In this document: positions 11,061 through 62,418 of the stretch, in pieces
How the letters are laid out: the number at the start of each line of letters is the position of its first letter
Numbering within the stretch: the first letter of the stretch is position 1
Assembly: GCA_041740355.1 (NCBI GenBank)
Contig: JBGSMD010000063.1
Coordinates: forward strand, 53,002-117,001
DNA length: 64,000 nucleotides
Direction of reading: 5' to 3'
DNA from: Bdellovibrionota bacterium
Lineage (GTDB): Bacteria > Bdellovibrionota_C > UBA2361 > CALJRW01
Made by a program: the position numbers and the translations under genes
Notes under the pieces: generated by a model
What the model was told of the DNA's origin: nothing
Databases searched by the model: none
The model's input: only the letters and a program-made list of their open reading frames with translations

Positions 11061-11506
11061 AAAAACTAATCCTAATTTTAATAGTGCTACTGACAATGGC
11101 TCCATTTGCCTTCGCTGAAGATTGGAACCGCAAGGGACCTCCAAAATTTGAGGGCAAATTTGATCCTGAGGATAAAGAAATTTATGCTCTGATGAAAGAT
11201 AAACATCAAGACATGATGAAAGAGATGGAGCAAATGATGGAAGAGCGAAAAAAACTAGGGGAGCTACTACGAAATCCAGAGACAAGTGATGAACAGATTC
11301 GTACACAATCTAAAGTTATTAACGATCAAATGCTAGCGATTAATAACAAAAGAACTGATGACATACTAAGCCTTAGAAAGAAACTTCCACCGGAAAAATT
11401 TAAAAAGCTCTTAGATCGCTTTGATGAAAAAAGAGATGAAATGCGTGATAAATTTAAAGGTAAATTTGATCGCTTTGGTAAAAATTCTCATTCCAAAAAC
11501 AATTAA
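11057..11506 (+). CDS. Secreted, highly charged helical protein, Spy/CpxP/ZraP-like periplasmic protein
   Basis: It has a signal peptide (…APFAFA|ED) and a lysine/glutamate-rich helical sequence. It overlaps the upstream gene by 4 nt, and ECF operons commonly include such a protein. Confidence 0.4.
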   Translation: MKKLILILIVLLTMAPFAFAEDWNRKGPPKFEGKFDPEDKEIYALMKDKHQDMMKEMEQMMEERKKLGELLRNPETSDEQIRTQSKVINDQMLAINNKRTDDILSLRKKLPPEKFKKLLDRFDEKRDEMRDKFKGKFDRFGKNSHSKNN

Positions 11507-11641: not shown

Positions 11642-11698
11642 TAGTTATCGTAACTCCAAAAAGTAATTTCCGTTGGGAATTATTTTTTGTCATAACTT
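11642..11698. repeat. Family-2 hairpin repeat, compact copy
   Basis: The outer arms are AGTTAT...ATAACT. The inner hairpin AAAAAGTAATTTCC-gttg-GGAATTATTTTTT is shared with the copies at 31.0, 31.3, 50.8 and 54.0 kb. Confidence 0.6.
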
Positions 11699-11730
11699 TA
11701 AATCAAGCCTAAACTTCTTCAAAGAGATCA

Positions 11731-15640: not shown

Positions 15641-15672
15641 TGATACTTACACAAAATTATTTACAGGCTCCT

Positions 15673-17355
15673 TTATAGGACTGGTACATCCCCAGCACTA
15701 GCAGGAGTTTCATTATCACCAATATTGTTTGTATTACCATAACCGATACTACCAAACTCACCGCTACCCCAACACCTAACACTACCGGTATCCAGTAATA
15801 CACATGTATGAATACCTCCGGCGGCTAGTTGAACCACGGTGCCACCGACATTTACATTTCCGACACTTGCTGGAGTTTCATTGTCACCAATATTATTAGT
15901 ATTGCCATAGCCAAGCTGACCATTTAAGCCTCGGCCCCAACACCTAACATTTCCCGTATCTAGTAATGCACAGGTTTTCTTAAAACCAGTAGCTATCTGA
16001 ACTACGGTGCCTCCGACATTTACATTTCCGACATTGGCTGGAGTTTCATTGTCACCAATATTATTAGTATTTCCATAACCAAGCTCCCCATCCGAACCTT
16101 CGCCCCAGCATCTTACATTTCCCGTATCTAGTAATGCACAGGTGTGATTCCCTGAAGCGGCCAATTGAACTACATTGCCACCAATATTCACAGCCTCATA
16201 GATAAGAGGTCCAATAATGTCATAAGTGCCCCCATGGCCAAGTTGGCCATAATAACCATCCCCCCAACACTTAACATTTCCTGAATTAACCAAGGCACAT
16301 GTATGATTACTTCCTGCTACTATTTGAGTTACAGTTTCATTTTCAAAATTGTAATCTTGAATAATAACAGACTCAAAGTTAGCAGGAGCTTCATCGTCTC
16401 CAACATTAGTAGTATTTCCGTTGCCCAGTTGGCCATTTCGTCCATAACCCCAACATTTAACTTGTCCAGTATTTAAAAGTGCACAGGTATGATTTGAGCC
16501 AGCAGAGATTTGAGTAACAGTCCCGCCAACATTAACATCTCCAGCATTGGCAGGTGTTTCAAAGTATCCAACAGAAGCAGTACTACCATATCCAAGTACA
16601 CCATAGTTACCACTCCCCCAACACCTAACTTTACCTGTGTCAAGTAGGGCACAGGTATGACCCCCTCCAGTAGCGATATCAACGACATTCCCGCCAACAA
16701 TTACATCCCCAACGCTTGCTGGTGTTTCATCATCTCCAATATTATAATGTACAGGAACAGTTGCATATCCAAGTTTACCAATAAACCCCTCACCCCAACA
16801 TCTAACTGCTCCAGTATCTAGTAGAACACAAGTATGACTAAATCCTGCCGATATTTTTTGAACATCTAAAGGTATATTACATAAGTTAGAACAAGCATCG
16901 TCATTAATATTATTTCCATCATCACACTGTTCTCCAGACTGCTTGACTCCATCTCCACAAATAGGCGTTGTGCATATATTAGTACAGGAGTCCTCATTGA
17001 TCGTATTCCCATCATCACACTGTTCAGCAATATCAACATCAACTACACCATTCCCACAGGTATGATTACAAGCAACCAGTCCTGAGACATGAAGCTTCTG
17101 CATTTTTTTTGATTGATTATTATATTTATTAATTCCGGTTGAGGCGAACAACTTCTTAAAATTAGAACTTAGCTTCTTATAGGTAATAAATTTCTTTTTT
17201 TGAATCTTCCCTGGCTTCCAAGAACCATTAACGTTTTTACAAACATAATTTATACCATCCTTTTCAACGTTTACCGTCTGGGCAAAAGCCGCCCCGGAGA
17301 ATAAAAATAGGCAGACTAGCAAAGATGAGAAGATAAATTGAAATGAGTTTTTCAT
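15673..17355 (-). CDS. Secreted RCC1-repeat (beta-propeller) protein with N-terminal Myxococcus-type cysteine-rich repeats
   Basis: A signal peptide is followed by CGNG..D..EQCDDGN...C..C repeats (x2-3). Then come about nine repeats of HTCALLDTG.V+CWG.G..GQLGYGNT..IGDNETPA (RCC1 signature). A start at 17355 (MKNSF...) is preferred over 17364. Confidence 0.8.
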   Translation of the reverse strand: MKNSFQFIFSSLLVCLFLFSGAAFAQTVNVEKDGINYVCKNVNGSWKPGKIQKKKFITYKKLSSNFKKLFASTGINKYNNQSKKMQKLHVSGLVACNHTCGNGVVDVDIAEQCDDGNTINEDSCTNICTTPICGDGVKQSGEQCDDGNNINDDACSNLCNIPLDVQKISAGFSHTCVLLDTGAVRCWGEGFIGKLGYATVPVHYNIGDDETPASVGDVIVGGNVVDIATGGGHTCALLDTGKVRCWGSGNYGVLGYGSTASVGYFETPANAGDVNVGGTVTQISAGSNHTCALLNTGQVKCWGYGRNGQLGNGNTTNVGDDEAPANFESVIIQDYNFENETVTQIVAGSNHTCALVNSGNVKCWGDGYYGQLGHGGTYDIIGPLIYEAVNIGGNVVQLAASGNHTCALLDTGNVRCWGEGSDGELGYGNTNNIGDNETPANVGNVNVGGTVVQIATGFKKTCALLDTGNVRCWGRGLNGQLGYGNTNNIGDNETPASVGNVNVGGTVVQLAAGGIHTCVLLDTGSVRCWGSGEFGSIGYGNTNNIGDNETPASAGDVPVL

Positions 17356-17408
17356 ATGGATCATTAAAAAAAGGATTAACTAACTTGTTAGGACTCGGAT
17401 CTTCTTGT

Positions 17409-17497
17409 TTAATCATTAAATAATACGGCGGCAGATAACTATCGACTCTTAAAGACTTAAACTTTAGAAATAATAATTAATGATTAGTTTGGATGAG
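17409..17497 (-). promoter_or_regulatory. Conserved upstream leader/promoter block of RCC1 paralog 1
   Basis: This ~89-nt block aligns by eye with 19442-19530, upstream of the paralog (TTAATC.TTAAATAATACGGC.G..AGATAACTATCG...TTAATGATTAG.TTGGATGA). Confidence 0.45.
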
Positions 17498-17730
17498 ACA
17501 ACTAAGATTTGAGATTCAAGGTAAATCTCGAAACTCTAAGTGACTTTATTCACGGTTAAAAGCTGTGTCCTGACTAAATCAGACTATTTAGTTCCTAAAA
17601 ATTGCAGTTCGAAAATGGTGCCTTATAAAATAAATTTTCAAGCTACAAAATTAATATGGGACTCAAGTATCATAAGAAGTCTAATAGATTCTAAAAACTA
17701 TTAGACTTCCAACTAATAATTTCTAGTTAC

Positions 17731-19401
17731 TTACAATACTGGCACATCGCCTGCACTAGCCGGCGTTTCGTCATCACCTATATCGTTGATATTACCATAT
17801 CCAAGATTACCCTCATCCCCATATCCCCAACATCTTACAGCACCAGTATCTAGAAGTGCACAAGTATGACTAACAATATAAGAAATTCTAGCATTTGAAG
17901 TAGTTATTTGAGTAACAGTGCCACCAACATTAATATCACCAACGCTAGCTGGAACCTCATTGTCTCCAATCGTTGTAAAATTTCCATAACCAAGTTGACC
18001 AGAACCTCCAAAACCCCAACACTTCACGGCACCAGTATCAAGTAGTGCGCAAGTGTGAGTTTTACCCGCAGATATTTGGGTTACCGTACCGCCAACATCA
18101 ACGTTATCAATACTTGCAGGTGTTTCATTGTCACCAACACTATATATATTACCGTAACCAAGTTGGCCCTCTTCGGCATATCCCCAACATTTTACTGCTC
18201 CAGTAGCTAAAAGCGCACAAGTATGATTATTGCCAGCAGATATTTGAGTTACTGTACCACCAACATTTATATCACCAACATTAGCTGGAGCCTCATTATC
18301 TCCAATAGTTTCAACATTTCCATAACCAAGTTGACCAGAACCTCCAAACCCCCAACACCTAACGGCACCATTATCAAGTAGTGCGCAAGTGTGACCACTG
18401 CCCACAGATATTTGAGTTACAGTACCGCCAACATCAACGTTACCAATACTAGCAGGTGTTTCATTGTCACCAATACTATTTGTATTACCGTAACCAAGTC
18501 GGCCATTTCCTCCATCGCCCCAACATTTTACAGCTCCAGTATCTAAAAGGGCGCAAGTATGCTTTCTACCAGCCGATATTTGAGTTACCGTACCGCCAAC
18601 ATCAACGTTACCAATACTAGCAGGTGTTTCATTGTCACCAATACTATTTGTATTACCGTAACCAAGTCGGCCATTTCCTCCATCGCCCCAACATCTTACT
18701 GCTCCAGTATCTAAGAGTGCGCATGTATGTTCTTCTCCCGCTGATACTTGAGTTATAGTACCACCTACATTCACATCTCCAACACTAGTTGGAGTTTCGT
18801 TATCTCCAATATTGATTACATTAGCATATCCAAGTTGACCAGAACCTCCATAGCCCCAACATTTAACATTACCAGTCTCCACAAGGGCACAGGTATGCGC
18901 ACCACCAGCGACTATTTCCAAGACTTTGTATAGACAAGTATTCGGACAAGTATCATCATCGTTACTATTCCCATCATCGCATTGTTCATCAGACTGGACA
19001 ATTCCATCACCACATTCTGGAAAATTACAAGAATTAGTACATAAGTCTGTGCTAACTAAATTCCCATCATCACACTGCTCACCCATGGATACGTCTAATA
19101 TTGTGTTTCCACAGGTATGACTACACGCAACTAACCCAGCTATATGCAGGTTCTTCATTTTTAGTGATTGCTTATTATATTTTTTTAAGGCAGTAGCTAC
19201 ATATAATTTCTTTAGATCTGATTGTAGTTTCTTGAAAGTTATAAATTTCTTTTTCTGGATTTTACCAGGTTTCCATGAGCCTTTAATTTGACTGCAAACA
19301 AACGTTTGTCCATCTTTAGTAACGGTAACTGTCTGTGCAAAAACTGAAGATGATAAACAAAAGAATACACAAGCGGATAATAATGAAAGCCTAATTTTCA
19401 T
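17731..19401 (-). CDS. Secreted RCC1-repeat protein with cysteine-rich repeats (paralog of 15673-17355)
   Basis: It has the same architecture and the same repeat consensus. The N-terminal 100 aa are co-linear with the paralog (…GSWKPGKIQKKKFIT.KKL…). Confidence 0.8.
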   Translation of the reverse strand: MKIRLSLLSACVFFCLSSSVFAQTVTVTKDGQTFVCSQIKGSWKPGKIQKKKFITFKKLQSDLKKLYVATALKKYNKQSLKMKNLHIAGLVACSHTCGNTILDVSMGEQCDDGNLVSTDLCTNSCNFPECGDGIVQSDEQCDDGNSNDDDTCPNTCLYKVLEIVAGGAHTCALVETGNVKCWGYGGSGQLGYANVINIGDNETPTSVGDVNVGGTITQVSAGEEHTCALLDTGAVRCWGDGGNGRLGYGNTNSIGDNETPASIGNVDVGGTVTQISAGRKHTCALLDTGAVKCWGDGGNGRLGYGNTNSIGDNETPASIGNVDVGGTVTQISVGSGHTCALLDNGAVRCWGFGGSGQLGYGNVETIGDNEAPANVGDINVGGTVTQISAGNNHTCALLATGAVKCWGYAEEGQLGYGNIYSVGDNETPASIDNVDVGGTVTQISAGKTHTCALLDTGAVKCWGFGGSGQLGYGNFTTIGDNEVPASVGDINVGGTVTQITTSNARISYIVSHTCALLDTGAVRCWGYGDEGNLGYGNINDIGDDETPASAGDVPVL

Positions 19402-31263: not shown

Positions 31264-31333
31264 GGGTTTACTATATAATCCGAGATACGCAAAAAGTAAT
31301 TCCCAATGGAAATTACTTTTTGGGCTCACTATA
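31264..31333. repeat. Family-2 repeat, partial copy
   Basis: AAAAAGTAATTCC-caat-GGAAATTACTTTTT is flanked by GGGTTTACTATA / GGGCTCACTATA. Confidence 0.6.
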
Positions 31334-38296: not shown

Positions 38297-38788
38297 ATGA
38301 CATTTTCCAGAACGGATGAAAAATACCAGACTTTAGAGACTCACCTAAGCCAGGATCAGTATTTAATGGTACATCTAAACCCTACTTACCCTGGTGTTTT
38401 AATACCAGAGAATTTTCTTGCTTCACCAACTCTTACACTAAAGTTAAGTTATAATTTTCAAGGAGTTACCGTTATCACCCCAGAATTAATTACGGCAGAA
38501 CTTATGTTTAATGGTAAACATTTTTCCTGCCGAATTCCACTGGCAGCGATTTGGGGTTGCACAACTATTGCTGAGAAAAACTTCATTTGGCCAGAAAGTC
38601 TTTCAGCAAATTCCTATGAGAGTTTAGCCACAGAAATGGAAAGTATTAAAAAACCTAAGTTAGCTGTTAATAAACAAGAAGATATTTCTACACCCTCTTC
38701 TAATCTTAAGAAAATTGAATCTGATCCCAAGCAGGAGGAACCAGTAGCAGAAAATAAAAAACGTCCAAACCTCACTCGAATTAAATAA
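38297..38788 (+). CDS. sspB: ClpXP adaptor SspB-like (stringent starvation protein B)
   Basis: The N-terminal domain pattern (…MVHLNPTYPGVLIPE…TLKLS…F.G….C.IPL.AIWG) is followed by an acidic/low-complexity linker and a basic C-terminal tail, KKRPNLTRIK, resembling the ClpX-binding tail of SspB. Confidence 0.55.
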   Translation: MTFSRTDEKYQTLETHLSQDQYLMVHLNPTYPGVLIPENFLASPTLTLKLSYNFQGVTVITPELITAELMFNGKHFSCRIPLAAIWGCTTIAEKNFIWPESLSANSYESLATEMESIKKPKLAVNKQEDISTPSSNLKKIESDPKQEEPVAENKKRPNLTRIK

Positions 38789-38813
38789 CCAATAGAAGAT
38801 AGCTGTTGAAGAA

Positions 38814-41150
38814 ATGATTAATTTAAAAGTTTTGATTGGCTCAACTAAGATTAATTATAATCTTATATCTTTAATTCTAGCTCTTACTTGTGTCCATCTG
38901 AGCATTTCACAAATAATTTCTAGTGAACCAATAAGTGGCTGGGACACTCCAGGGCATCTCTACTTAACATATAAGATGCAAGAATTCTTAGGATTAGGAA
39001 CCTGGTTTGGCTATGATTCAAGCTGGTTCTCAGGCACAGCTCTCTTTGTGCTGTATCCACCACTAACATATATATTAATTAACATATTACATCTTATAAC
39101 TTTCTCTTCTGATCTAACTTATAGTTTTAACCTATTTATTTACCTTCAAGCTCAATTATTAGTAATAATTTTTTACTGGATAACAAAATATATTTTAGGT
39201 GTCGAATATCGGAAATATGTGATGTTGGTGCTCACCTTAATGTTACATACAAACATTATCTATTCGACCCACTTTATAGGATTAGCAGGATTATTTTACG
39301 CAGGCTTTCTATCAAATTGTACAGGGCTAATTCTATTCTTGCTGCTATTTGCACAAATCAGAAAACTGGAATTAAACATTATTAGCTCCTCTTATACTTC
39401 AATATTAATATTGAGCTTGATTTTACTTAACCATATAATCTCAGCAATATTTACTTTAATATTTATATCAATTTACTTAGCCCTTCAGGGAAATTCAAGG
39501 GTAGCGAAAAAATGGTTTGCTGTTATCGCAGTCGCTTCGCTGGTTGCTTCCCCTTATTACTGGATATTTATTGCCAATCTAGAATTTTCATCCTCAGAAG
39601 CTATCGGGCTTCACGGATCTTTTCCCGATCCCTTATTAGTCCTCTTTCCAAATCTTAATATTGAACATTTTGTGAATATGTTTAATGCCGAATTTAGCGA
39701 TACCTTCAGTTTTTTTAACTATAAAATCGAGTTGCCATTAATCATCAGTCAATTTCCATATTATGCGCTGATTGCTTTTTATTTTGGAATTAAAGGAAGT
39801 CTTCTAATTGTTAAAAGTCAAAAAAAACTACTGGGGTTTCTTTTTACAATTACTATCCTCTTCATATTCTTACCTCGCGCTTACTTAACAAACCTAACTA
39901 GCCTGACAATCCACTACTATCGCTTTACTGGCCTGCTGAGTTTCATGTTTATTTTTATAATTGCCTCTGGGATTAAACATTCTGACTACACACATAGCAA
40001 TTTGAAAAAAATACTCGGAGGTATATTTCTTGCTCTGATTTTACTACTAACAACGTCGTATCAGATGCTTTTCATTAGTGATTCTAGACATCAAGAATTT
40101 AAGCTACACCTGAGCGATTATCAAGGATATCAAAACCTAGATAAGGTTGCTAAATACCTTAAAGAGAACAATCTAACTGCAGGTGTTGCAATTGAGCAAA
40201 GCTATAATTTCCTCCTACAAGTCGGTTCCCTTCATGCCGTTTCATATCTTTTCCCGCATAAGTATAAAATCCCAATCAAGACTGGACTACTAGCTGAGTC
40301 AGCTTATTACTCGTCATTAATTAATCCCACTTTAGGTCTTCAAACAAATCACATGGTTTGGGGAAGTAAAGAATTATACCTTTTTAACTATTTTAATAAC
40401 CCAAAAAAAAATCCGAATTTATTTATTGAGAAGCTAAGGCTTTTAGGAGTAAAAGTATTAATCACAACAGATCGGGACAGCTTCAAAAAAATTAAAACCC
40501 TAACTCTTCAAAATCGTTTTCTAGTACTAAATAAAAAGATTGCTAATTATGCTATATTTGTTTTGCCAGAGTTGTCCCTAAAGAAAACCAACTCAATCAA
40601 GCCCCGATATCTATTTTTTGATTCAAAAGAATTAGCATTCAAAATGTTTTTTAGAGACTGGTTTGCTTATGATTCAACGATTAATTTTAACCTAGTATAC
40701 GATTACTTCAATTTGACTCAAAAAGATCCTAGCTTATTAAGTCAATTTTCAGGATTAGTCTTTTCCGCTGAGAATACAAATTCTTGTCTTAAGAATTACG
40801 AAAAGCTGAAGAGCTTGCAAGGTGATCTGAATGAAAAGTTAATCCCCTTAATTGATCAACAAAACCAGCAGCAAGAAAACCCAGCAATCCAAAAGCATAA
40901 GAGAGACTTTTATGATTTAGATATTATTTTCTTGGGTAAGAAGTGTTTTAAAGATCCGAACTGGAAAGTTAAGTGGATTAAAACAAATAATCCAGAAGAG
41001 AGAATGGCAAAACTAACAAAACTAGTTCAAAAAAATAAGCTAAAAATTCTCGTTAATAATAGACTGATTAATACGGAAGATACGTTTAGCCCACTAAATG
41101 GTAATAATTCATTTATCCAAACCCCGTTTTTTACTCTAAAGGTTAGGTAG
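38814..41150 (+). CDS. Large polytopic membrane protein (778 aa), GT-C/YfhO-like architecture
   Basis: The N-terminal ~430 aa hold about 13 or more hydrophobic helices, followed by a soluble ~340-aa C-terminal domain. The gene looks very AT-rich by eye. The family assignment is a guess from architecture only. Confidence 0.55.
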   Translation: MINLKVLIGSTKINYNLISLILALTCVHLSISQIISSEPISGWDTPGHLYLTYKMQEFLGLGTWFGYDSSWFSGTALFVLYPPLTYILINILHLITFSSDLTYSFNLFIYLQAQLLVIIFYWITKYILGVEYRKYVMLVLTLMLHTNIIYSTHFIGLAGLFYAGFLSNCTGLILFLLLFAQIRKLELNIISSSYTSILILSLILLNHIISAIFTLIFISIYLALQGNSRVAKKWFAVIAVASLVASPYYWIFIANLEFSSSEAIGLHGSFPDPLLVLFPNLNIEHFVNMFNAEFSDTFSFFNYKIELPLIISQFPYYALIAFYFGIKGSLLIVKSQKKLLGFLFTITILFIFLPRAYLTNLTSLTIHYYRFTGLLSFMFIFIIASGIKHSDYTHSNLKKILGGIFLALILLLTTSYQMLFISDSRHQEFKLHLSDYQGYQNLDKVAKYLKENNLTAGVAIEQSYNFLLQVGSLHAVSYLFPHKYKIPIKTGLLAESAYYSSLINPTLGLQTNHMVWGSKELYLFNYFNNPKKNPNLFIEKLRLLGVKVLITTDRDSFKKIKTLTLQNRFLVLNKKIANYAIFVLPELSLKKTNSIKPRYLFFDSKELAFKMFFRDWFAYDSTINFNLVYDYFNLTQKDPSLLSQFSGLVFSAENTNSCLKNYEKLKSLQGDLNEKLIPLIDQQNQQQENPAIQKHKRDFYDLDIIFLGKKCFKDPNWKVKWIKTNNPEERMAKLTKLVQKNKLKILVNNRLINTEDTFSPLNGNNSFIQTPFFTLKVR

Positions 41151-41153
41151 TAG

Positions 41154-41312
41154 CTAGTTATAATTCATTTTATCTGCTGTAAATTTTAATTTTTGTGAGC
41201 TAGCTCTTCCCATAGCAGTTACGGCAACGATGGTTACGATAGCGATTAACGCAACAAGTAGTCCATACTCAACTAATGATGCCCCTTTTTTATTTTTATT
41301 TATTTTTTTCAT
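41154..41312 (-). CDS. flp: Flp/Fap family type IVb pilin (52 aa; not in the ORF track)
   Basis: Hand translation gives MKKINKNKKG|ASLVEYGLLVALIAIVTIVAVTAMGRASSQKLKFTADKMNYN*. The G-x-x-x-x-EY motif plus a hydrophobic helix is the Flp signature. Confidence 0.7.
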   Translation of the reverse strand: MKKINKNKKGASLVEYGLLVALIAIVTIVAVTAMGRASSQKLKFTADKMNYN

Positions 41313-41363
41313 ATTCTTCTTTATTGGGTTTCCCCGTTAAATACGCCTGATTGATAAATCTAG

Positions 41364-41960
41364 TTAAATATCTAATTTTTTGCAATTAAGATGGAAATTA
41401 TTAGGTAAATCTACAGTTAGTGTAAACTGATATGCGCCTGCTACTGCTATATTTAATTTAATATTCTGACTGTTTTCGCCATTGAAAAGTGTAAAATCTT
41501 GATTCAAAGTAAGATTAGATCCCTCTTGTTCGAATCCAAATACAAAAGGGCTAGTCCAATCTTGATCTGCGATTTTAAATTCATACTCTCCGGGAATTAA
41601 GGGTAATACTACTCGATAGTTATTCCCGCCAACTGGCAAAAGCTGATTATAAGCTCCCGCTTTCCAATTCTCAATTCGATTAACACGAAGAAACACATTA
41701 CGATCAATACTTTTTATTGGATTATTAGCACTATTTTCTTGCGTAATTGGATTAAAATAAACTACAACGGCCAATAATAAGATTACAAGAAAAATTATCC
41801 CTCCAAAAATCTTGGCATAAGATTCCATCTTTTTCCTAAACCTATATTGTTCTGCGAATTTTTTTAAATTAGCAGTGCTTCTTGATCGAACCGAATCTTG
41901 AATAACATCGCCCAGACCTAATTGATCCTGTCTTTTAAACGTTCTTTTATTAAATATCAT
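41364..41960 (-). CDS. Single-pass membrane protein with C-terminal beta-sandwich-like (CBM-like) domain
   Basis: It has one TM helix (IFGGIIFLVILLLAVVVYF). The C-terminal GEYEFKIADQDWTSPFVFG resembles carbohydrate-binding-module patterns. This is a weak call. Confidence 0.4.
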   Translation of the reverse strand: MIFNKRTFKRQDQLGLGDVIQDSVRSRSTANLKKFAEQYRFRKKMESYAKIFGGIIFLVILLLAVVVYFNPITQENSANNPIKSIDRNVFLRVNRIENWKAGAYNQLLPVGGNNYRVVLPLIPGEYEFKIADQDWTSPFVFGFEQEGSNLTLNQDFTLFNGENSQNIKLNIAVAGAYQFTLTVDLPNNFHLNCKKLDI

Positions 41961-42165
41961 AACTAGCTAAGTTTATCAGATAACGAATTAGAATTACAGA
42001 TAAGATCTACTGTAAAGTATCAAATATTATCGGTTTATTCGTTACAAGCTAATCACAACAACCACAGGGCCCCTAATGAAAGGGATCAGAATGACCTGAT
42101 TATTCAATCCATTTGAATTATCTTTACAATTAGAAAATGGATTAATTCGATACAAACGTTATGAA

Positions 42166-42194
42166 TTGTTAGCACTCTGGTTTAGGTGTATATT
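42166..42194 (+). promoter_or_regulatory. Candidate sigma-70-type promoter for the RT operon (TTGTTA-N17-TATATT)
   Basis: The hexamers were read directly from the sequence with a 17-nt spacer, about 80 nt upstream of the RT ATG. In AT-rich DNA such matches are common by chance. Confidence 0.25.
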
Positions 42195-42272
42195 TATATT
42201 TGGTTGGTTTGTGCAACCTATCGATTAGAACATATTAAAAAAGACAAACGGACCCAATCAGCAATCTTAGTA

Positions 42273-43604
42273 ATGAACCTACTGCAAAAACTCTCCTCCC
42301 GTGAAAACTTTTTAGCAATCCTTGATATTTTAAAAAGTAAAAAAAAATCAAAATCTTGGATTCTACAATCTGCCCCGATTGAAAAATCAATATCGCTTGC
42401 TTGGTGTATTTATAACCAAGACTTACTTATCAAGTATTATTTAAAAAACTTAAGAAATCATTCCTATCGCCCACAAGTAAGAATTAAAATGACTATTTTT
42501 ATAGATAAACAAAGGATTATCTATAATATTAACTGGGTTGATAAAATTATGGACTATGCCCTGACTAAACTACTTTTTGATGTCAGTGCGGAATTTTTCT
42601 CCGATCAATTATTTTCCTATCGCCAAGGATTTTCTAATAAAAAAGCAGTAAAAAGCCTCTGTAAATATATCAAGAATAATCAAGGCTCAGAGATCTACAT
42701 TGCCAAACGAGATATTAAATCATACTTCGATAATATTAATAGCGGGATTTTAACCTCACAAATTAAGGAGAAATGTGGCGAGCAAGATTCCTTTTTTTGG
42801 AAACTTTTAAGTAGTTTCTTACAACCAGAATATTATGATCCGGAGCTAGATCTTCAGGAGCAACTACTTCTAGGAATACCAACTGGATCTTGCATCTCTA
42901 ACTTTGCTGCGAATTTTTATTTGCACGACCTTGATCATTTAGCTGTAAACAATTTAGACTTTTATGTTCGCTATGGAGACGATATAATTTTTGCTGATCG
43001 GGATAAGGATAAGCTAAATCAGCTTCTTAATACTTATCAAGAAAAAATTTTGGAACGCGATCTTAAATTCCACCCAGACAAAGATCTATTCCTGAAAATC
43101 GGACCAACTTTAGCAAGCTCCAAAGATTCGCCCTATCAAAGCAAAAAAGTATTTGATTACCTAGGTTACCAAATTAGCGACGAAGGACTTATCTTCCTAA
43201 AGTCTTATAAATTTAAAAAACTAAAAAAGGATATTAAGAGTAGACTATTCAACTCCTATCGCACATATTACCGTGCTGGACTAAGTAAGGATCTGCAAAT
43301 GTCTAATCTGATTAAAGACCTAAATGGTACGATGCGAGATTTAAATTACTATAATCATTTCGCCGATCTTGTCCTATTCACGACTGATAAACCACGACTT
43401 AAGGAATTTGATATTTGGATTGCTCAAACAATTATTGCCATGACTCATAACTGTTCTCGCGCTAATGCGTTTGGGAAAATTTCCTACAGACAAATACGCG
43501 AGGCAGGTCTATTCTCGATTCTAAATTACAAGAATATTTATCCTAGAAGAAATGAAGTTCTCCGATCTACAAAAAATCTCCAAAGCAGATCAGCAACGAC
43601 GTAA
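42273..43604 (+). CDS. Reverse transcriptase (RNA-directed DNA polymerase), orphan/unclassified
   Basis: RT motifs in order: YRPQ...I....R.IY (1), D+I..YAL..LL (2), RQGFS...AV, KRDIKSYFDNI (3), LGIPTGSCISNFAANFYLHDLD (4), YVRYGDDIIF (5; YGDD at 42972-42983), FHPDKDLF (6), FDYLGYQI (7). A ~150-aa C-terminal extension follows. The ATG at 42273 is preferred over the GTG at 42186. Confidence 0.85.
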   Translation: MNLLQKLSSRENFLAILDILKSKKKSKSWILQSAPIEKSISLAWCIYNQDLLIKYYLKNLRNHSYRPQVRIKMTIFIDKQRIIYNINWVDKIMDYALTKLLFDVSAEFFSDQLFSYRQGFSNKKAVKSLCKYIKNNQGSEIYIAKRDIKSYFDNINSGILTSQIKEKCGEQDSFFWKLLSSFLQPEYYDPELDLQEQLLLGIPTGSCISNFAANFYLHDLDHLAVNNLDFYVRYGDDIIFADRDKDKLNQLLNTYQEKILERDLKFHPDKDLFLKIGPTLASSKDSPYQSKKVFDYLGYQISDEGLIFLKSYKFKKLKKDIKSRLFNSYRTYYRAGLSKDLQMSNLIKDLNGTMRDLNYYNHFADLVLFTTDKPRLKEFDIWIAQTIIAMTHNCSRANAFGKISYRQIREAGLFSILNYKNIYPRRNEVLRSTKNLQSRSATT

Positions 43605-45786
43605 TCTTGTCCGTAAAGGACTAGAGCAGTATGATCTCAGATCCTACTTACGCTACTTAAGGTATCGAATTAAATGGCCAATACTTTTTAAGTTACTTTC
43701 TCGACTAATTGTTATTGTTGAAGTGATTCTAATTCAACAACTATTTACTTATAATATTTTTGCAGACTTAACTCTCTATATTTTCATTATTTTTATCAGT
43801 CGAAGCGCCCTAAAAGGTATTACTCAATACTATCGTGTGCAACTAATGCCCCTAGCGACGGCAAAAAACATTTCTGGCCTAAATATCGCCCTAAGTAAGG
43901 CTCTGATCATAAACATCTTTTCTGCCTTTTTATTAGCCTTGGTCATTAGCATTCTTTGTCTACTCTTAGATTTATCGGATCAGTTAAACACTTACTTTAT
44001 AATTTCCTGGTGCTTATTAATCCCGCTAGAGCAAATTACCACGCAGCTTTGGAATACCGTCTATCTTAATACCCGACTAAGGCGAAGTGCCTTGATTACT
44101 TTCATTTGCCGCATGCTTCCAATCATTTCACTATTAGCTTTTAGCAGCTTGATTGGCCCCCTAAGTTACATTCTGGGTACATTTATGGCGAGATTATTAG
44201 AAAGTTTTTACTTATCGCGTGTCGCAATTTTAGCATTAAAGTTCAAATTTACATTAAAGAAGAAATCGAGCAGTTTGTTACAAGTTATCGGACAGTATTT
44301 TAAAAATCAAAAGGCGCGCCAATACCTTTACTTTAATGCCATCCTACCCTGTTATTTTTTGGGTCTTGGATTAATCATCTTTGAACGGGGAGTCGGTACC
44401 TGGATTACAAATATTATTTATTTTTTTATTTTAAATTTTGCAGTTTTTTTTACTACACAAATTTCACGCTCAATTCAATTTGACATCTACTCCTGCTTTA
44501 AAAAAGGGCAGGTAAAAAAAGCAACGTTCTTAGGCAAAAGAATTGTAAAATATACTTTGAACTTTGCTGTAATTCTAGCAGCTAGCTTTATCTATTTACT
44601 CTTAAATTCCAAAAGGTTTTACCTTTTCATACCAATTAGCTTAGAATATTTTCTATTAATCTTACCCTTGGCAGTAATTGCTCAAACGTTTTTTTTTTCG
44701 ATCTATGCCCAAATCCAATCCCTAGCAATCGATCGTTATTTCACCAAGCTAATCTTCATTAGCTTCCTCCTAATAGGCTTACCAATTCAGTTCCTTCTAT
44801 TTCATTATTACCTCGCAAATCTACAAGCGATCTACTGGACTGAAATCCTTCTCTTTGTGTTTGTAGGTACACTATTATATTTAAATTTGAACTTTAATCT
44901 CAGTCCCTTTTTAATAAAGTATATCAAAAGAGAGCGGAAGGCTCTGCCCCTGTGCCAACCAACTGCACTCCAATTAGAGCTCCGAACTAAATATATCAAA
45001 ACTGGCTCAGCTTATCTTTACATATTATCTTATTATGAGCGGGATGCTTTCTGGGAACGCATTAAGTATTCACTTCCCCAAACAAAAGATTTCTTAATTA
45101 CCCGGTACTCTGCTGGGCTCTTCCTGCTTTCATCTCATCAACCACTGACGGATCTTGATTTTCGCAACCTAAGCTTTGTTGCCAAAAAGCAAATAGATTT
45201 AAGCCAAGAGCTACTGCAGACTTTACTGGATATTTATACTTTTTACTATTCTCTAGAATTTAGAAATAGCTCATTCCAAAAAATACGTAATAAGTTCTAT
45301 CTTAATAGATCCATCAAAGAAGAATTGTATCAGTTAGCGGAATTAAAGAGGCCAGTAGATCAAATAATATCAGAGTTGCTTGGAGCTCCTAGGATCGTCT
45401 TCAAAAATGGTAAAATTTCTTGTTTGGGCAAAGTCAGTAATAAACTTTATAATTTTGCTTTGAACCAATATTTTTATCCTGACAATAACTTGGCTCCCGC
45501 AATTCAAGGATCCCAATTAACAATCAGAATTAATAATACGGAAACAATTAGTTTCGACTTAAGGCACTTGAATAGTTACCTAATTGGACAAGTTAATAAA
45601 AAGATTTTTTTCCTCAATCAATATTATTATTTTAAGAATATTATTGATCCCCATTTGCCATATGCAGCTAGCATTCAAGATTATTTAATAGCACGGAGAC
45701 TGATTCATAAACATACCCGTCGCTGTAAAACGAGAAAGGCTGACCATTTAGCAGATCTCAATTTTTATAATCATAAATTAGTATGA
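43552..45786 (+). CDS. Polytopic (~12 TM) membrane protein with ~290-aa soluble C-terminal domain; RT-operon gene 2
   Basis: About 12 hydrophobic helices were counted by eye between aa ~40 and ~450 (MOP/MATE-flippase-like spacing). No motif was recognised in the C-terminal domain. It overlaps the RT gene by 53 nt and the PLD gene by 4 nt. Confidence 0.65.
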   Translation: MKFSDLQKISKADQQRRNLVRKGLEQYDLRSYLRYLRYRIKWPILFKLLSRLIVIVEVILIQQLFTYNIFADLTLYIFIIFISRSALKGITQYYRVQLMPLATAKNISGLNIALSKALIINIFSAFLLALVISILCLLLDLSDQLNTYFIISWCLLIPLEQITTQLWNTVYLNTRLRRSALITFICRMLPIISLLAFSSLIGPLSYILGTFMARLLESFYLSRVAILALKFKFTLKKKSSSLLQVIGQYFKNQKARQYLYFNAILPCYFLGLGLIIFERGVGTWITNIIYFFILNFAVFFTTQISRSIQFDIYSCFKKGQVKKATFLGKRIVKYTLNFAVILAASFIYLLLNSKRFYLFIPISLEYFLLILPLAVIAQTFFFSIYAQIQSLAIDRYFTKLIFISFLLIGLPIQFLLFHYYLANLQAIYWTEILLFVFVGTLLYLNLNFNLSPFLIKYIKRERKALPLCQPTALQLELRTKYIKTGSAYLYILSYYERDAFWERIKYSLPQTKDFLITRYSAGLFLLSSHQPLTDLDFRNLSFVAKKQIDLSQELLQTLLDIYTFYYSLEFRNSSFQKIRNKFYLNRSIKEELYQLAELKRPVDQIISELLGAPRIVFKNGKISCLGKVSNKLYNFALNQYFYPDNNLAPAIQGSQLTIRINNTETISFDLRHLNSYLIGQVNKKIFFLNQYYYFKNIIDPHLPYAASIQDYLIARRLIHKHTRRCKTRKADHLADLNFYNHKLV

Positions 45787-47513
45787 AATCCAAAAGTTTA
45801 ATCTACTTTATTTTCATTTTACTAAGCTTAATTATTGGACTATCGCTCCACGCTGAGAGAATCGAAATACCTCTTTACGTTCTACGAAAAGCAATTACTT
45901 GTTCTAGTGTTCAAGAGAAAACATTGGAAGTTGTTTTCCAAAACAAGTCTTATTTGATCGCATTTGACCATATTTACAGTACTCCCGTTATTAATGCAGG
46001 TTTAGTCTGTCAACGTTTGATCCGCTACTTAAAAGCAGCGCCTTCGCCCAATTTAATCATCCCTATCTCCAAAAAATATACCAAGTTCGGCCATGATATT
46101 TATGTCGATGAATCAGGATTTTTAGAAAAAGCTTGCCTAGAACAAGGGCTTTGTAAGCGAAACATCTTGGATACTTTTAAGCCCAAAAAAATACTCCGTG
46201 AATGTCATGGGAAAATTACACTAAACGGCTTATTGGCAAAATCTCGTCCCAAAATTCCTGGCTATCAAACAAAAATCATTAAAGATGTTACAATTAAAAT
46301 TCACCCATTTCATCCATTTATCAATATTCTAAATGAATACCTTCAAGATCCAATTTTAAAGGAAATTCATGCCTCTACTATGTCAATTGGTAATCAAGCC
46401 CTAGACGATATTTCTGCCAGCACGCAAAGCTACAATAAAAAGGCTGTAATTAATTATGATGCCGGAATTTCATTGTTCAATTCTCAACAAGGCCAAATTG
46501 CTAAGGCTATTACTAAGTCACCTAAAGTTCATTTTTTACCAATGACCAGTGGTAATAATTTTAGCCAATTTTATCACATCAAATTTATTGCTAGCCCACA
46601 AACTAACAAGTCAATGTTGGCCTCAATGAATTTAGCCTCAGTAGATCGAACAGCATATCTCGACCTAAATTTTTTCTTTGAGGATCCTACTATTCGCGAT
46701 GAGTTTTTATCCATCTCAAATAATAATAATCGAAGATTTTGTGATTATTCTGAAGATTATGACTGCTTAGCAAATTTTTATGATGAAAGATCAAAATCCC
46801 ATATTCCACTGGTAATAAATAGAAGTTGTCCGACAAGCAATACCGAAACTACTATCAAAAGATCTGGTTACTTTGTAAACTCCGAAGATGATGATCTCAA
46901 ACAATTTGTGATAAACTTTATTAATCAAGCAAAACAAGAAATCATTGTAACTTCCTACAAGTTAACAGAAAGAGCCATTGCCAAGGCCTTATTAAACAAG
47001 CAGCAAGAAGGGCTTAAAGTTCACGCCATGTTAGCCTTTAAATCTCCCGCATTGGGCGAATTGAAAAGCCATTTCTACTCGGGGGAAGTTGTTAAGGAAG
47101 AGTATCCTTTTCCTCACATGAAAATTATTATTATCGATCGCCGACTAATGCTATTTGGAACTGCGAACTTCACGATTAATGCTTTAAATAATACAACTGA
47201 ATTAATTGGAGTTACTGATAATCAGCAAGCAATTAAAACAGCGTTAGATCATGTCGCAGTTTTTACACAGTCCAAAGATCTGGCCTTAAGTAAAAACATT
47301 TCCAATACTCCTAAGCAGAAAAATTATGTAGCAGTGACGAGCTCTACGCAGATCAAACCAGTGAATTTACCTTTTACTAAACCGCTTGAGCAGAAATGGT
47401 TATCAAACTACCGAGAGGTAACAAAGGAAGGCGAAAAATTATTAGATAAGTGTGATTTAAGGCACCTTATTTTTATAACTAAGGCAACTTATTTGGAATG
47501 TCTTAAAAAATAA
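45783..47513 (+). CDS. PLD-superfamily (HKD) enzyme with N-terminal signal peptide/anchor; RT-operon gene 3
   Basis: The canonical HKD motif HMKIIIIDRRLMLFGTANFT (HxKxxxxD-x6-GTxN) lies at 47115-47168. A degenerate first motif, HIKFIASP...ASMN, lies at 46575-46641. The N terminus MKSKSLIYFIFILLSLIIGLSLHA is signal-like. Confidence 0.8.
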   Translation: MKSKSLIYFIFILLSLIIGLSLHAERIEIPLYVLRKAITCSSVQEKTLEVVFQNKSYLIAFDHIYSTPVINAGLVCQRLIRYLKAAPSPNLIIPISKKYTKFGHDIYVDESGFLEKACLEQGLCKRNILDTFKPKKILRECHGKITLNGLLAKSRPKIPGYQTKIIKDVTIKIHPFHPFINILNEYLQDPILKEIHASTMSIGNQALDDISASTQSYNKKAVINYDAGISLFNSQQGQIAKAITKSPKVHFLPMTSGNNFSQFYHIKFIASPQTNKSMLASMNLASVDRTAYLDLNFFFEDPTIRDEFLSISNNNNRRFCDYSEDYDCLANFYDERSKSHIPLVINRSCPTSNTETTIKRSGYFVNSEDDDLKQFVINFINQAKQEIIVTSYKLTERAIAKALLNKQQEGLKVHAMLAFKSPALGELKSHFYSGEVVKEEYPFPHMKIIIIDRRLMLFGTANFTINALNNTTELIGVTDNQQAIKTALDHVAVFTQSKDLALSKNISNTPKQKNYVAVTSSTQIKPVNLPFTKPLEQKWLSNYREVTKEGEKLLDKCDLRHLIFITKATYLECLKK

Positions 47514-47518
47514 AAGAA

Positions 47519-47650
47519 AAAAGAGTTGGGCGGAATTTAACGCTTACCTGCTCTATAATATCTGCCGTCAGAACCTGCACCTTTCTCCGAAGGCGTATTT
47601 ACAGATCCCCCTTGCGTTTGGAGAAGCCCGAAGGCGACAACCCAACTCTT
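47519..47650. ncRNA. Candidate structured element: GC-rich ~110-nt core closed by a 10-bp inverted repeat (AAGAGTTGGG...CCCAACTCTT)
   Basis: The inverted repeat was read directly. On the minus strand the core contains GCC-UUCG-GGC and a second UUCG, plus UUCUCC/GGAGAA pairing. The minus strand is followed by a U-rich tract. The strand, and whether it is transcribed at all, are unknown. Confidence 0.3.
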
Positions 47651-47730
47651 AATTTAATATTACCATAGCAATTTAACGATAAACAATGATTTATTTTTAA
47701 AGTTCTAAGAAAGGAATGTAATTAAAAGTT

Positions 47731-48309
47731 TTAGTTCGACTCAACCTTTTGCATTTTCTTCATGTGGATTTGATAAAGCTCTTCTTTGCCATAATCTTCT
47801 AACTCACGTGAGCGACTCATTAAGGTTTCTTTATCTTCAATATAAAGTCTTGGATCCGGATGGTGGACTTCGGGGTGAAGTCCCGTGTCCATTCGAATGG
47901 CATCTACTGGGCAGGCTTCCACACAAAAACCACAATAGATACAAAGCAAAGTATCAATCTCATATCGTCTCGGGAACTTTTCAATTTCAGGATCATCGTG
48001 CTCTGCCGCTTCAATGTAAATACACTTTGCCGGACAAGCAGTTGCACAAAGAAAACAGGAGGTACATTTAACACTACCTTCCGATGTAAGAGTTAAACGA
48101 TGACGACCCCGATATCGCTCTGGGTAATCACGGCGCTCATTGGGATATTGAATCGCAACATCAGCAGCAATATTTTTGGCGAGACCAACTGTATGTAAGA
48201 CATGTAAGGAAAAATTCTTAGCAAGCTTGGTGAAAGTGAAGGCAACACCCTTAGCTACCTCAATCAGGTAGATCTTTTCCCAAAAATTCATTTCTTCACG
48301 ACGTCTCAT
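47731..48309 (-). CDS. nuoI: NADH-quinone oxidoreductase subunit I (2x[4Fe-4S] ferredoxin)
   Basis: CTSCFLCATACP and CIYCGFCVEACP are present, with NuoI-type N- and C-terminal extensions (…YPERYRGRH.L…). Confidence 0.85.
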   Translation of the reverse strand: MRRREEMNFWEKIYLIEVAKGVAFTFTKLAKNFSLHVLHTVGLAKNIAADVAIQYPNERRDYPERYRGRHRLTLTSEGSVKCTSCFLCATACPAKCIYIEAAEHDDPEIEKFPRRYEIDTLLCIYCGFCVEACPVDAIRMDTGLHPEVHHPDPRLYIEDKETLMSRSRELEDYGKEELYQIHMKKMQKVESN

Positions 48310-50532: not shown

Positions 50533-50762
50533 ACGACCACTTCCTCTTTACGACAAAACATTTCTAAAAACTCGGTAAGTTTTGAAATGTTTTTGGTTAA
50601 ATCTGGAAGAAAAAATCTGCAAGTCTAACCCTACTAAGATTCAATCTTATTAAAAGTTCTATATTGAATATGATCACTAAGCAAGATTTATTATTTTGTG
50701 TTTAGCTAAAAAAAATGTTGACAGAAAAATCAAAAGTTCAAGATTTTAAGTGAATGATTCTT

Positions 50763-50897
50763 TAGTTATGACAAAAAGTAATTTCCAAATATTTCAAAGG
50801 TAGTTTTTTGTCATAACTATATGATATTATTATCCCTCCGGGGGATAGTAAGCCCCAAAAAGTAATTCCAAACAGAAATTACTTTTTAGGCTTACTA
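50763..50897. repeat. Family-2 composite repeat, full copy (two long hairpins)
   Basis: Hairpin 1 is TAGTTATGACAAAAA...TTTTTGTCATAACTA (15 bp). Hairpin 2 is TAGTAAGCC(CC)AAAAAGTAATT...AATTACTTTTT(A)GGCTTACTA (~20 bp). It is co-linear with 54003-54144. Confidence 0.7.
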
Positions 50898-50915
50898 AAT
50901 TTGTCCTTGATTAAA

Positions 50916-53803: not shown

Positions 53804-54002
53804 AAAATATTGCTTTGATTATAATACTAGCCACTTTACTGATGAATCTTTTCAAATAAAGATTACTTACTAAATTAAGTATCTATGACGTAAGAACTAG
53901 ATTAAATTGCACAACTTTTCTTAGATTAGGATATTCAAATTCAATCGCTGTCCAAGTAAATTTGCAAACTGCCAAAAAGTGTATCGCTGCGGATGAGTTT
54001 TA

Positions 54003-54144
54003 TAGTTATGACAAAAACTAATTTCCGAATATTTAAAAATTAGTTTTGTGATTTTTGTCATAACCGTATGATTTTATAACGCTTGCGGGGGATAGTAAGC
54101 CCCAGAAAGTAATTCCTATTGGAAATTCCTTTCTGGACTTACTA
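54003..54144. repeat. Family-2 composite repeat, full copy
   Basis: It has the same two-hairpin layout as 50763-50897, with small indels and compensating changes. Confidence 0.7.
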
Positions 54145-55070: not shown

Positions 55071-55143
55071 GCCCAGATAGCTCAGTTGGTAGAGCAAAGG
55101 ACTGAAAATCCTTGTGTCGACGGTTCGATCCCGCCTCTGGGCA
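55071..55143 (+). tRNA. tRNA-Phe (anticodon GAA), no encoded CCA
   Basis: It is co-linear with canonical bacterial tRNA-Phe: acceptor GCCCAGA/TCTGGGC, D arm GCTC-AGTTGGTA-GAGC, anticodon loop CTGAAAA, and T arm GACGG-TTCGATC-CCGCC (one A-C mismatch). Confidence 0.9.
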
Positions 55144-55580
55144 CTTTTTCACAATTTTATTGTGAAAAAGTGCATAGCTATTTTCGTAGAAAATAGCTGG
55201 GCCATACATCTAAAGGATGTTGCATAATAATTTTGAGTCATAGATACAGTCTTTTTCTTAACCTAATTCTCAAAATTATTGGGCTACTTTCGCCTAGCGA
55301 AATAAAGTGCATAGTAATTTTCTGAAAGAAAATTACTGGGCAATTACCAGAATGGTGTTGCATAGCTATTTTCGAAGAAAATTACTGGGCAATTACCAGA
55401 ATGGTGTTGCATAGCTATTTTCGAAGAAAATAGCTGGGCATTATCCGAAGGATAATGTTTAGTAGTTCTTCCTAAAACTACTAAACCCGAGCACCGCGAG
55501 GGTTAATAATTCTGATCTCAGAATTATTAAGCAATCATCCGCAGGATGATGCTAAGTAGTTTAAGGAAAAGCTACTTGGC
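55141..55580. repeat. Array of ~15 back-to-back hairpins starting in the last 3 nt of tRNA-Phe
   Basis: Examples: GCACTTTTTCACAAT-ttt-ATTGTGAAAAAGTGC (15 bp), AGCTATTTTC-gta-GAAAATAGCT, AATAATTTTGAG...CTCAAAATTATT, AGTAATTTTC-tgaaa-GAAAATTACT, ATTATCC-gaa-GGATAAT, GTTTAGTAGTT...AACTACTAAAC, TTAATAATTCTGA-tc-TCAGAATTATTAA. Several are followed by (C)TGGGC(A), the same sequence as the tRNA-Phe 3' acceptor end. Confidence 0.7.
55331..55428. repeat. Perfect 49-bp tandem duplication (x2) within the hairpin array
   Basis: AATTACTGGGCAATTACCAGAATGGTGTTGCATAGCTATTTTCGAAGAA occurs at 55331-55379 and again at 55380-55428. Confidence 0.85.
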
Positions 55581-62273: not shown

Positions 62274-62346
62274 ACGCTAGTAGCTCAATTGGTAGAGCAT
62301 CGGATTCCAAATCCGAGGGTTGGGGGTTCAAGTCCCTCCTGGCGTG
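62274..62346 (+). tRNA. tRNA-Trp (anticodon CCA), no encoded CCA end
   Basis: Hand-folded: acceptor ACGCTAG/CTGGCGT (one G-U), D arm GCTC-AATTGGTA-GAGC, anticodon stem TCGGA/TCCGA with loop TTCCAAA, and T arm GGGGG-TTCAAGT-CCCTC. Confidence 0.9.
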
Positions 62347-62418
62347 TTCTCCCCTTTTGGGTCACACGGCATCGAACCATTTAAATACCTCGATGTATTG
62401 TGACCCAAAAGGGGAGAA
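62347..62418. repeat. 20-bp perfect hairpin immediately after tRNA-Trp, with nested 6-bp hairpin
   Basis: TTCTCCCCTTTTGGGTCACA-N32-TGTGACCCAAAAGGGGAGAA. The loop contains CATCGA...TCGATG. Confidence 0.8.

Follow-up and report, generated by a model that had tools for sequence, protein, structure and literature searches.

A conserved structured element 3' of a reverse transcriptase cassette in Bdellovibrionota, a candidate non-coding RNA of an undescribed system

The cassette and the element at its 3' end

In the 64-kb stretch of a Bdellovibrionota contig analysed here (the window, to which coordinates refer unless one of the comparison loci L068, L070, L073, L074, L077, and L078 is named), genes encoding a reverse transcriptase (RT), a polytopic membrane protein, and a PLD/Nuc-type nuclease are followed directly by a structured non-coding element, which is delimited by the two arms of a closing helix, P1 (Table 1). 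The open reading frame (ORF) of the PLD gene ends with the TAA at 47511-47513. On the other side, the stop codon of a minus-strand nuoI-like gene is situated 80 nt from the element, which is hence located downstream of this gene as well.

The RT start was placed at 42273 and not at the GTG at 42186, because homologues have lengths of 443 and 431 aa. The 744-aa membrane protein contains multiple hydrophobic segments between residues 40 and 450 and has no match in Pfam, PADLOC, NCBIfam, or PDB. N-termini resembling signal peptides were observed for the PLD proteins of the window, L068, L070, L077, and L078, and the nuclease is probably exported; 9-12 cysteines accompany the Sec signal peptide in the PLD nucleases of the cassettes. 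The gene order RT (~430 aa), polytopic membrane protein (718-772 aa), and PLD/Nuc-type nuclease is conserved, and the cassette represents a rare, undescribed three-gene system. An RT with envelope-located partners is an unusual pairing.

The original prediction, made from the window alone, described a GC-rich element closed by a 10-bp inverted repeat, with two UUCG motifs (one in a GCC-UUCG-GGC hairpin), a UUCUCC/GGAGAA helix, and a U-rich run past the closing helix on the minus strand. All of these features were found. The arms AAGAGTTGGG and CCCAACTCTT are perfect complements, the minus strand past the closing helix reads UUUUUUCUUUU, and the GC content of the element is 0.50, compared to 0.367 for the window, 0.345 for the PLD gene, and 0.19 for the spacer at 47651-47730. 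Taken alone, however, the 10-bp inverted repeat is weak evidence and not unusual for this window, in which 62 perfect 10-mer inverted repeats with a gap of 20-150 nt occur, compared to 15 +/- 5.5 in composition-preserving shuffles. The single-sequence fold z-scores of the window element are modest as well (-3.3 on the plus and -1.4 on the minus strand). It is the comparison with other genomes, not the inverted repeat, that indicates a real element.

An index of 5.8 billion proteins contains, besides the PLD protein itself, only two relatives of it, and both are located in cassettes of the same three genes with different neighbourhoods. One (L068/L069) belongs to a sister metagenome-assembled genome (MAG) and is flanked there by a 158-aa gene and a GT87 gene; the other (L070-L072) is found on JGI contigs, between a Flp-type gene and an HNH gene. 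In both of these close cassettes the element is situated directly 3' of the PLD gene, and in case of L068 the PLD stop codon falls inside it. The frame past the window PLD stop (47499-47541) reads KKKELGGI and then a stop, which matches the KELGEI C-terminus of the L068 protein. Judging from these reading frames, the window copy seems to have acquired an earlier stop, and the ancestral PLD ORF probably overlapped the closing helix.

A scan with the NuoI-like protein, restricted to one genome per species, yielded 65 loci (524 kb), nearly all from Bdellovibrionota MAGs. The element was found in none of them by blastn, nhmmer, or covariance model (CM), and none has an RT, membrane protein, or PLD gene within 4 kb. 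Matches of nhmmer and CM were confined to cassette-bearing loci, whereby the CM E-values on training sequences follow by construction. Furthermore, the sister genome provides an empty site: its NuoI-like gene (94% protein identity) adjoins a 198-aa gene with a spacer that lacks the element, whereas in the window the 198-aa gene lies on the other side of the cassette from nuoI. Both genomes are colinear (gyrB-parC-p158-p758-Flp-p198-nuoI-helicase), but cassette and element are situated between p198 and nuoI in the window and between p158 and GT87-p758 in the sister genome. Therefore, cassette and element relocate as one unit. Homology of the window and L068 cassettes is detectable from the RT start codon to ~19 nt beyond the element (to 47669). 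Due to saturation, the flanks of filled and empty sites cannot be aligned, and exact insertion junctions are thus undefinable.

As judged from this distribution, the element belongs to the cassette and not to the nuoI-like gene; the co-occurrence with the RT operon, proposed as a check in the original prediction, holds for both other close cassettes. A bidirectional terminator shared with nuoI, which had been offered as one explanation, is refuted in this form by the 65 loci and by the sister nuoI/p198 spacer. The same applies to a chance inverted repeat and to a housekeeping small RNA (sRNA) or terminator of the nuoI-like gene: the frequency of 10-bp inverted repeats in the window and the position on the minus strand 80 nt past the nuoI-like stop codon would suit such explanations, but the comparative data, including the 94%-identical sister locus and the conservation of the element with the RT cassette elsewhere, leave them practically without probability. 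Rfam was searched with the window, L070, and L073, and nothing relevant was obtained: only tRNAs passed the gathering threshold, and relaxing the limit to E<=10 added no more than chance snoRNA-type matches.

No second copy of the element occurs in the 64-kb window or in 0.5 Mb of related loci. On this single copy number, a dispersed repeat of the miniature inverted-repeat transposable element (MITE) or repetitive extragenic palindrome (REP) type was rejected. Searches for further copies, namely with the DNA pattern in viral and metagenome contigs, with the PLD alignment against metagenome and viral contigs, and with the membrane protein (tblastn) against plasmids and phages, yielded nothing.

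Within the colinear regions (window 38297-48309 and L068 5331-17698), a distance of ~3 kb separates the two cassette sites. Housekeeping proteins on the flanks share 94-96% identity between the window and L068, but for the cassette and for p158, p758, Flp, and p198, the small genes located from parC to nuoI, the identity is only 52-71%, and this region is therefore considered a fast-evolving or exchanged island. The GT87 gene of L068 is missing in the window.

Conservation, structure, and strand of the element

The comparative set comprises three independent sequences, those of the window, L068, and L070. Fourfold degenerate sites of the RT, membrane protein, and PLD genes are saturated (0.24-0.42 identical between cassettes), and second codon positions are 0.63-0.87 identical. 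The identity of the element core, 0.89-0.93 between window and L068 and 0.74-0.80 to L070, exceeds that of the second codon positions, and in a stretch of 26 nt only three positions differ. This degree of identity demonstrates strong purifying selection on the element.

All three copies maintain full pairing of P1 (10-11 bp). In L070 (AAAGCTGGGC/GCCCAGCTTT) both partners are changed in three of its pairs, all of these compensatory changes being Watson-Crick, and P4 gives way to a longer hairpin (7-10 bp) in the same place. Paired cells amount to 94-99% in the structure models, compared to 30-54% with the partners slid. An unpaired G just past the first P1 arm is invariant. As single-stranded DNA (ssDNA) the core is not notably structured (z -0.2 to -1.5). 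Such a pattern of P1 and P4 is characteristic of a structured nucleic acid with a function and not of a simple terminator.

A carried terminator, insulator, or 3' untranslated region (UTR) stabiliser without a specific role for the RT, in which P1 and the U-run stop convergent transcription and/or protect the operon mRNA, was nevertheless considered. The next gene is convergent in all three contexts (nuoI-like, GT87, and HNH), on the minus strand P1 is followed by a U-run with an A-run ahead, and no other terminator-like site is found between the PLD and nuoI-like genes. However, a stem with a U-run does not require 74-93% identity over a core of 46-69 nt while synonymous sites are saturated, the multi-branched loop of 110-170 nt is atypical of intrinsic terminators, and the site was not called by the terminator scan, with a U-run of only 4 nt in L068. 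This explanation is unlikely, though it retains some weight.

Two models were obtained for the strand, and P3 of the one and P5/P6 of the other are mutually exclusive if only one strand is RNA. The plus model (P1, P2, P3, and P4) has a share of paired cells of 94.4% and includes five pairs with changes on both sides. P2 pairs better on the plus than on the minus strand; its pair 27:60 reads C-G, U-G, and A-U and its pair 28:59 G-C, unpaired, and A-U. P3 shows no double changes and is weakened in L070, whose plus core does not form this hairpin. Fold z-scores across the three copies are -3.0, -3.9, and -4.5 on the plus strand, compared to -1.9, -2.0, and -4.2 on the minus strand. The minus model (P1, P4, and a 13-bp P5/P6) contains 98.9% paired cells and four pairs changed on both sides, with a lower RNAalifold energy (-37.6 versus -27.3 kcal/mol) and a higher structure conservation index (SCI; 0.82 versus 0.63) than the plus model. 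P5 is paired at 9/9, 9/9, and 8/9 positions on the minus strand, with four, three, and one G-U pairs required, respectively, compared to 5-7 of 9 positions on the plus strand. P6 is paired at 4/4 positions in each copy on the minus strand; its pair 108:123 is G-U, G-C, and A-U in the three sequences. P5/P6 is the minimum free energy fold of all three cores, and only on the minus strand.

Signals adjoining the element are found on the minus strand. A U-run follows P1 in all three copies (UCUUUUAAAC in L068, where it comprises only 4 nt, and CUUUAUUUUUCUC in L070), and P1 together with this run closes a branched insert of 110-170 nt. At 10-12 nt ahead of P1, the aligned copies read TATGGT, TATGAT, and TATAAT; for the window, TATGGT (47667-47662) or TAATAT (47662-47657) may represent a -10-like hexamer, combined with a weak -35-like TTGTTT (47686-47681). 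The P4 loop on this strand is cUUCGg. The core is not notably structured as ssDNA, and the minus-strand signal is not attributable to a structured cDNA. With a slight preference only, we lean towards an RNA on the minus strand that is independently transcribed and antisense to the operon 3' end. A small minus-strand ORF (GUG at 47580) was rejected, since it is not kept in L068.

A minus-strand transcript could also act as a cis-encoded, antitoxin-like antisense sRNA, which, by pairing to the operon mRNA at its 3' end, would regulate the expression of the membrane protein and nuclease, both of them potentially toxic. The -10-like box, the U-run, the consistent P5/P6 fold, and the overlap with the PLD 3' end in L068 are compatible with such a function, and a convergent-overlap layout, as observed here, is typical of type I toxin-antitoxin pairs. 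Complementarity in cis is automatic, though, and needs no sequence conservation, whereas the conserved unpaired core nucleotides point to a protein or trans partner; moreover, no toxin-like small ORF is involved. We regard this function as doubtful.

Table 1. Features of the cassette, of the element and its copies, and of related loci (window positions unless a comparison locus is given; a dot marks features without an assigned strand)
Feature	Coordinates	Strand	Remarks
Reverse transcriptase, 443 aa	42273..43604	+	Pfam RVT_1, YGDD motif
Polytopic membrane protein, 744 aa	43552..45786	+	Homologues in all cassettes
PLD/Nuc-type nuclease, 576 aa	45783..47513	+	PLDc_2 at C-terminus, NucT/DrmC-like; N-terminal Sec-type signal peptide
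U-rich run adjoining P1 (A-rich on plus)	47505..47520	-	Partly overlaps PLD stop region
Structured non-coding element	47521..47650	.	Arm-to-arm of closing helix; homologous copies in L068 and L070
P1 first arm, AAGAGTTGGG	47521..47530	.	10/10 paired in all three sequences
P2, alternative long-range helix	47537..47571	+	UUAACG (47537-47542) with CGUCAG (47566-47571); encloses variable region
Variable segment (~25 nt)	47543..47565	.	29-50% identity between copies
P5/P6 hairpin, GGGGAUCUGU...GCAGGUUCU plus GCCU/AGGU	47570..47609	-	Loop UCGGAGAA; 13 bp, many G-U pairs
P3, alternative hairpin, UCUCCGAA.GCG / CGU.UUGGAGA	47584..47624	+	Paired 11/11, 11/11, 8/11
P4, small GC hairpin	47626..47635	.	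GCC-CGAA-GGC on plus; GCC-UUCG-GGC on minus
P1 second arm, CCCAACTCTT	47641..47650	.	Perfect complement of first arm
Tail kept between window and L068	47651..47686	-	Possible promoter of minus-strand RNA
Candidate unpaired template stretches			CUUCUCCAAACGCAAGG on minus; P3 loop on plus
Core sequence of element			TCAGAAMCTGCRCCTWTCTCCGAAGG
Element copies	L068 ~11096-11229; L070 ~11772-11949		
RT-membrane protein-PLD cassettes	Window 42273-47513; L068 5852-11113; L070 6501-11764; L073 8001-13353; L077 8001-13328; L078 8001-13172		
Structured RT-upstream regions	L073 7695-7900; L077 7640-7925; L078 7856-8000		
Genes downstream of the element		-	NuoI-like 2x[4Fe-4S] protein, HrpA/B-like helicase, MTHFR-like gene

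Relation to known reverse transcriptase systems and to distant cassettes

No named family in PADLOC or NCBIfam matched the RT above threshold, and its resemblance to group II intron and Class 2 UG enzymes is sub-threshold. Its best PADLOC match, RT_UG26 (111.6 bits), equals that of a generic RT model, followed by UG17 (87) and Drt9 (82). The group II intron RT model TIGR04416 gave 107 bits (cutoff 300), retron_St85_RT of NCBIfam 34.2 bits (cutoff 235), and Drt3a 64 bits (cutoff 200). PADLOC retron RT models match with E-values of 1e-9 to 1e-11, far below the UG and group-II-like models, and the best PDB match is the GsI-IIC RT (1e-9). An exhaustive HMMER search with the RT profile yielded 388 cluster representatives at E<=1e-30, most of them full-length with ~430 aa; ten sampled relatives match PADLOC UG models as weakly as the window RT does.

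Among the defence-associated reverse transcriptases (DRTs), Class 2 enzymes polymerise products templated by a non-coding RNA (ncRNA) (PMC13174585), and in case of the DRT2/9/10 type the RT copies a short template in its RNA (PMC12632851, PMC13174585). DRT10 combines an RT with an independently expressed ncRNA that has a basal stem and with a membrane effector (PMC12632851; 10.64898/2026.04.29.721553). The window locus resembles DRT10, DRT9, and DRT2 in the small RT (~430 aa) and in a structured element with a basal stem, DRT10 also in the membrane protein, and the best PADLOC matches of the RT belong to Class 2 groups (UG26, UG17, and Drt9). However, these matches are weak (~80-112 bits) and no better than the generic RT model, the ncRNAs of those systems are located upstream of the RT and not downstream, and their effectors are of the SLATT type, which differ from the partners found here. 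Thus, of the traits that mark a Class 2 DRT, a conserved structured element beside the system is present, while a score for a named UG group is not reached. A DRT2-like stop-free repeat ORF was rejected, as stops interrupt every frame of both strands in two of the three copies.

In the DRT3 defence system, a structured ncRNA without which the system does not function is encoded at the 3' end of the RT operon (PMC9226505), and the conserved non-coding element after the last gene of the window cassette takes a similar position. In contrast to DRT3, a single RT and not a UG3/UG8 pair is encoded, with Drt3a far below its cutoff, a CACACA-like motif is missing in the element, the place of the second RT is taken by a membrane protein and a secreted PLD nuclease, and the strand may be antisense. 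DRT ncRNAs are subtype-specific, and covariance models work within one subtype only (10.64898/2026.04.29.721553).

The retron msr-msd layout, one of the original suggestions, holds with respect to terminal inverted repeats around a structured core: P1 is a1/a2-like, and the invariant unpaired G is situated just past its first arm. It fails with respect to RT clade, position, and ssDNA fold. The RT lies outside the retron clade (34 bits, cutoff 235), and the element is located 3.9 kb downstream of the RT gene, after two more genes, and not upstream, where the window RT lacks conserved non-coding sequence. A long msd-type hairpin and an Rfam msr match are missing, and a retron-like structured cDNA was discarded, because the ssDNA of the core folds no better than shuffles.

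Group II intron RTs are the closest solved or curated relatives of the RT, and a structured element 3' of the RT gene is reminiscent of these introns. The distance to TIGR04416 (107 versus 300 bits) and the three separate ORFs between the would-be intron ends set the locus apart, and no match to group II intron RNA domains was obtained with Rfam at the gathering threshold or at E<=10.

More distant members of the RT family, L073, L077, and L078, have kept the order RT, membrane protein, and PLD nuclease, with homologous partners. Here, the spacer 3' of the PLD gene is short (100 nt in L077 and 51 nt in L078), but the spacer upstream of the RT gene is long and strongly structured, with z-scores of -6.4 (L073), -5.4 (L077), and -5.4 (L078). 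The L073 region contains a 13-bp closing helix followed by a U7 run, with a promoter-like TTGAAA-18-TATTGT just upstream of it, and the L077 region forms an imperfect hairpin of ~165 nt. These regions may be positional variants of the ncRNA module, and the pattern fits a family-wide need for a structured RNA of varying position. A likeness by eye of one L073 helix to P5 was dropped, since CM, nhmmer, and local alignment gave no significant match.

In case of L074 (1446-4993), an RT with 30% identity is encoded divergently to a 725-aa hydrophobic protein, and no PLD gene is present. The similarity of this protein to the 744-aa protein is marginal (E 0.07), and L074 may represent a reduced or rearranged variant of the system.

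Proposed role of the element and further observations

Among the options of the original prediction, an ncRNA that belongs to the RT system itself and is placed 3' of it is favoured, as the element travels with the cassette into three contexts and is under strong purifying selection; the sRNA option is compatible with the data but unspecific. We consider it fairly probable that the element is a structured ncRNA gene of ~130-190 nt and an obligatory fourth part of an RT system that has not been described before. By analogy to DRT and retron ncRNAs, the element would be transcribed, and its RNA would be bound and used by the RT. The best-supported placement is a new RNA family that would work like these ncRNAs yet is a member of none of their families. 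Each of the rival explanations accounts for some of the observations, but the strong conservation of unpaired core nucleotides is explained by none of them.

In detail, the 10-11 bp helix would close the element around the conserved internal hairpins and one variable segment, and the RT would bind this RNA specifically. Closing helix and hairpins would serve as scaffold, while a conserved unpaired stretch would provide the template and/or the priming site for cDNA synthesis. It is tempting to speculate that the cDNA, or the state of the ribonucleoprotein, controls the envelope-located partners.

Several observations weigh against this proposal. The use of the RNA by the RT rests on analogy, because the RT scores below the threshold of every ncRNA-using RT family. 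Only three independent sequences are available, two of them fairly close, and covariation has therefore little statistical power; shuffle controls, moreover, are known to be permissive. The promoter and terminator scan gave no call on either strand, with sigma-70 criteria unmet and no terminator in 47300-47900. The evidence on the strand conflicts: z-scores are better for the plus strand, P2, which is confined to this strand, also shows wobble-mediated covariation, and z-scores, SCI, wobble-pair counts, and covariation counts point in different directions. With the PLD stop codon adjoining the element or lying within it, the element must, at the least, be contained in the operon 3' UTR. Finally, comparison of the structured regions of the distant cassettes to the window element by CM (filters on and off), nhmmer, and local alignment with shuffled controls gave nothing significant; due to this lack of detectable sequence or CM similarity, their equivalence to the element is an inference.

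A role at the DNA level, as recombination or attachment site or as terminus of a mobile cassette, including a recognition site of the RT for retro-mobility of the unit, would be in line with the different cassette sites in two colinear sister genomes, with the homology ending ~19 nt beyond the element, and with the strand symmetry of an inverted repeat whose compensatory changes are all Watson-Crick. On the other hand, a second copy, a matching repeat at the 5' boundary, and a recombinase or transposase gene in the cassette are all missing; the homology boundaries mark only the end of constraint, because neutral sites are saturated; export of the PLD nuclease is probable in view of its signal peptide; and folding of the core as ssDNA is unremarkable. 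An integron attC site, an imperfect palindrome that follows a cassette ORF and, read 5' to 3', opens with R'' (RYYYAAC) and closes with R' (GTTRRRY), was rejected: GTTGGGC precedes ACCCAAC on both strands, which is the wrong order, and L070 (AAAGCTGGGC/GCCCAGCTTT) carries neither a GTTRRRY nor a RYYYAAC box. A DNA-level role is accordingly judged improbable.

Thin support is also noted for a more specific form, in which RT, membrane protein, and PLD genes are retro-mobile as one unit and the 3' element is the recognition site at which the RT starts on the operon transcript. Such a cassette would copy itself into new sites, as a bacterial retroelement that is neither intron-like nor similar to long terminal repeat (LTR) elements but rather non-LTR-like. 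The two sites in the colinear sister genomes and the extent of the homology, from the RT start codon to just past the element, would suit this mode of transfer; saturated neutral sites, extra or truncated copies not being seen, and the apparent export of the nuclease oppose it, and we consider it very improbable.

NcRNA-dependent RT systems (retrons and DRT2, DRT3, DRT9, and DRT10) have each revealed a new mode of DNA synthesis and have become genome-engineering tools. If the element is the ncRNA of the cassette, as presumed here, the new RNA family marks an RT family that is unnamed in the libraries tested (PADLOC, NCBIfam, and Pfam) and provides a concrete handle for asking what this RT synthesises. 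Furthermore, the ncRNA module could sit at either end of the cassette and possibly on either strand. Automated discovery usually searches only upstream and on the same strand, for which such a variable position matters.

Several further repeats were observed in the window. One dispersed family consists of intergenic palindromes (CAAAAAGTAATTCC...GGAAATTACTTTTTG), flanked by TTATGACAAAAA units, and is present at four or more sites, namely 11646-11702, 31290-31333, 50758-50899, and 53998-54144. A near-perfect palindrome of 36+36 nt without spacer (62347-62418; 83% complementary) adjoins the tRNA gene at 62274-62346. In the region 55171-55442, just downstream of the tRNA gene at 55071-55143, a sequence of 49 nt is perfectly duplicated in tandem (55326-55423), and related repeats of 35 nt are present as well. 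Diverged 168-nt (56-codon) repeats are arranged in long arrays in two blocks at 15655-18927 and presumably belong to repeat-domain proteins encoded on the minus strand.

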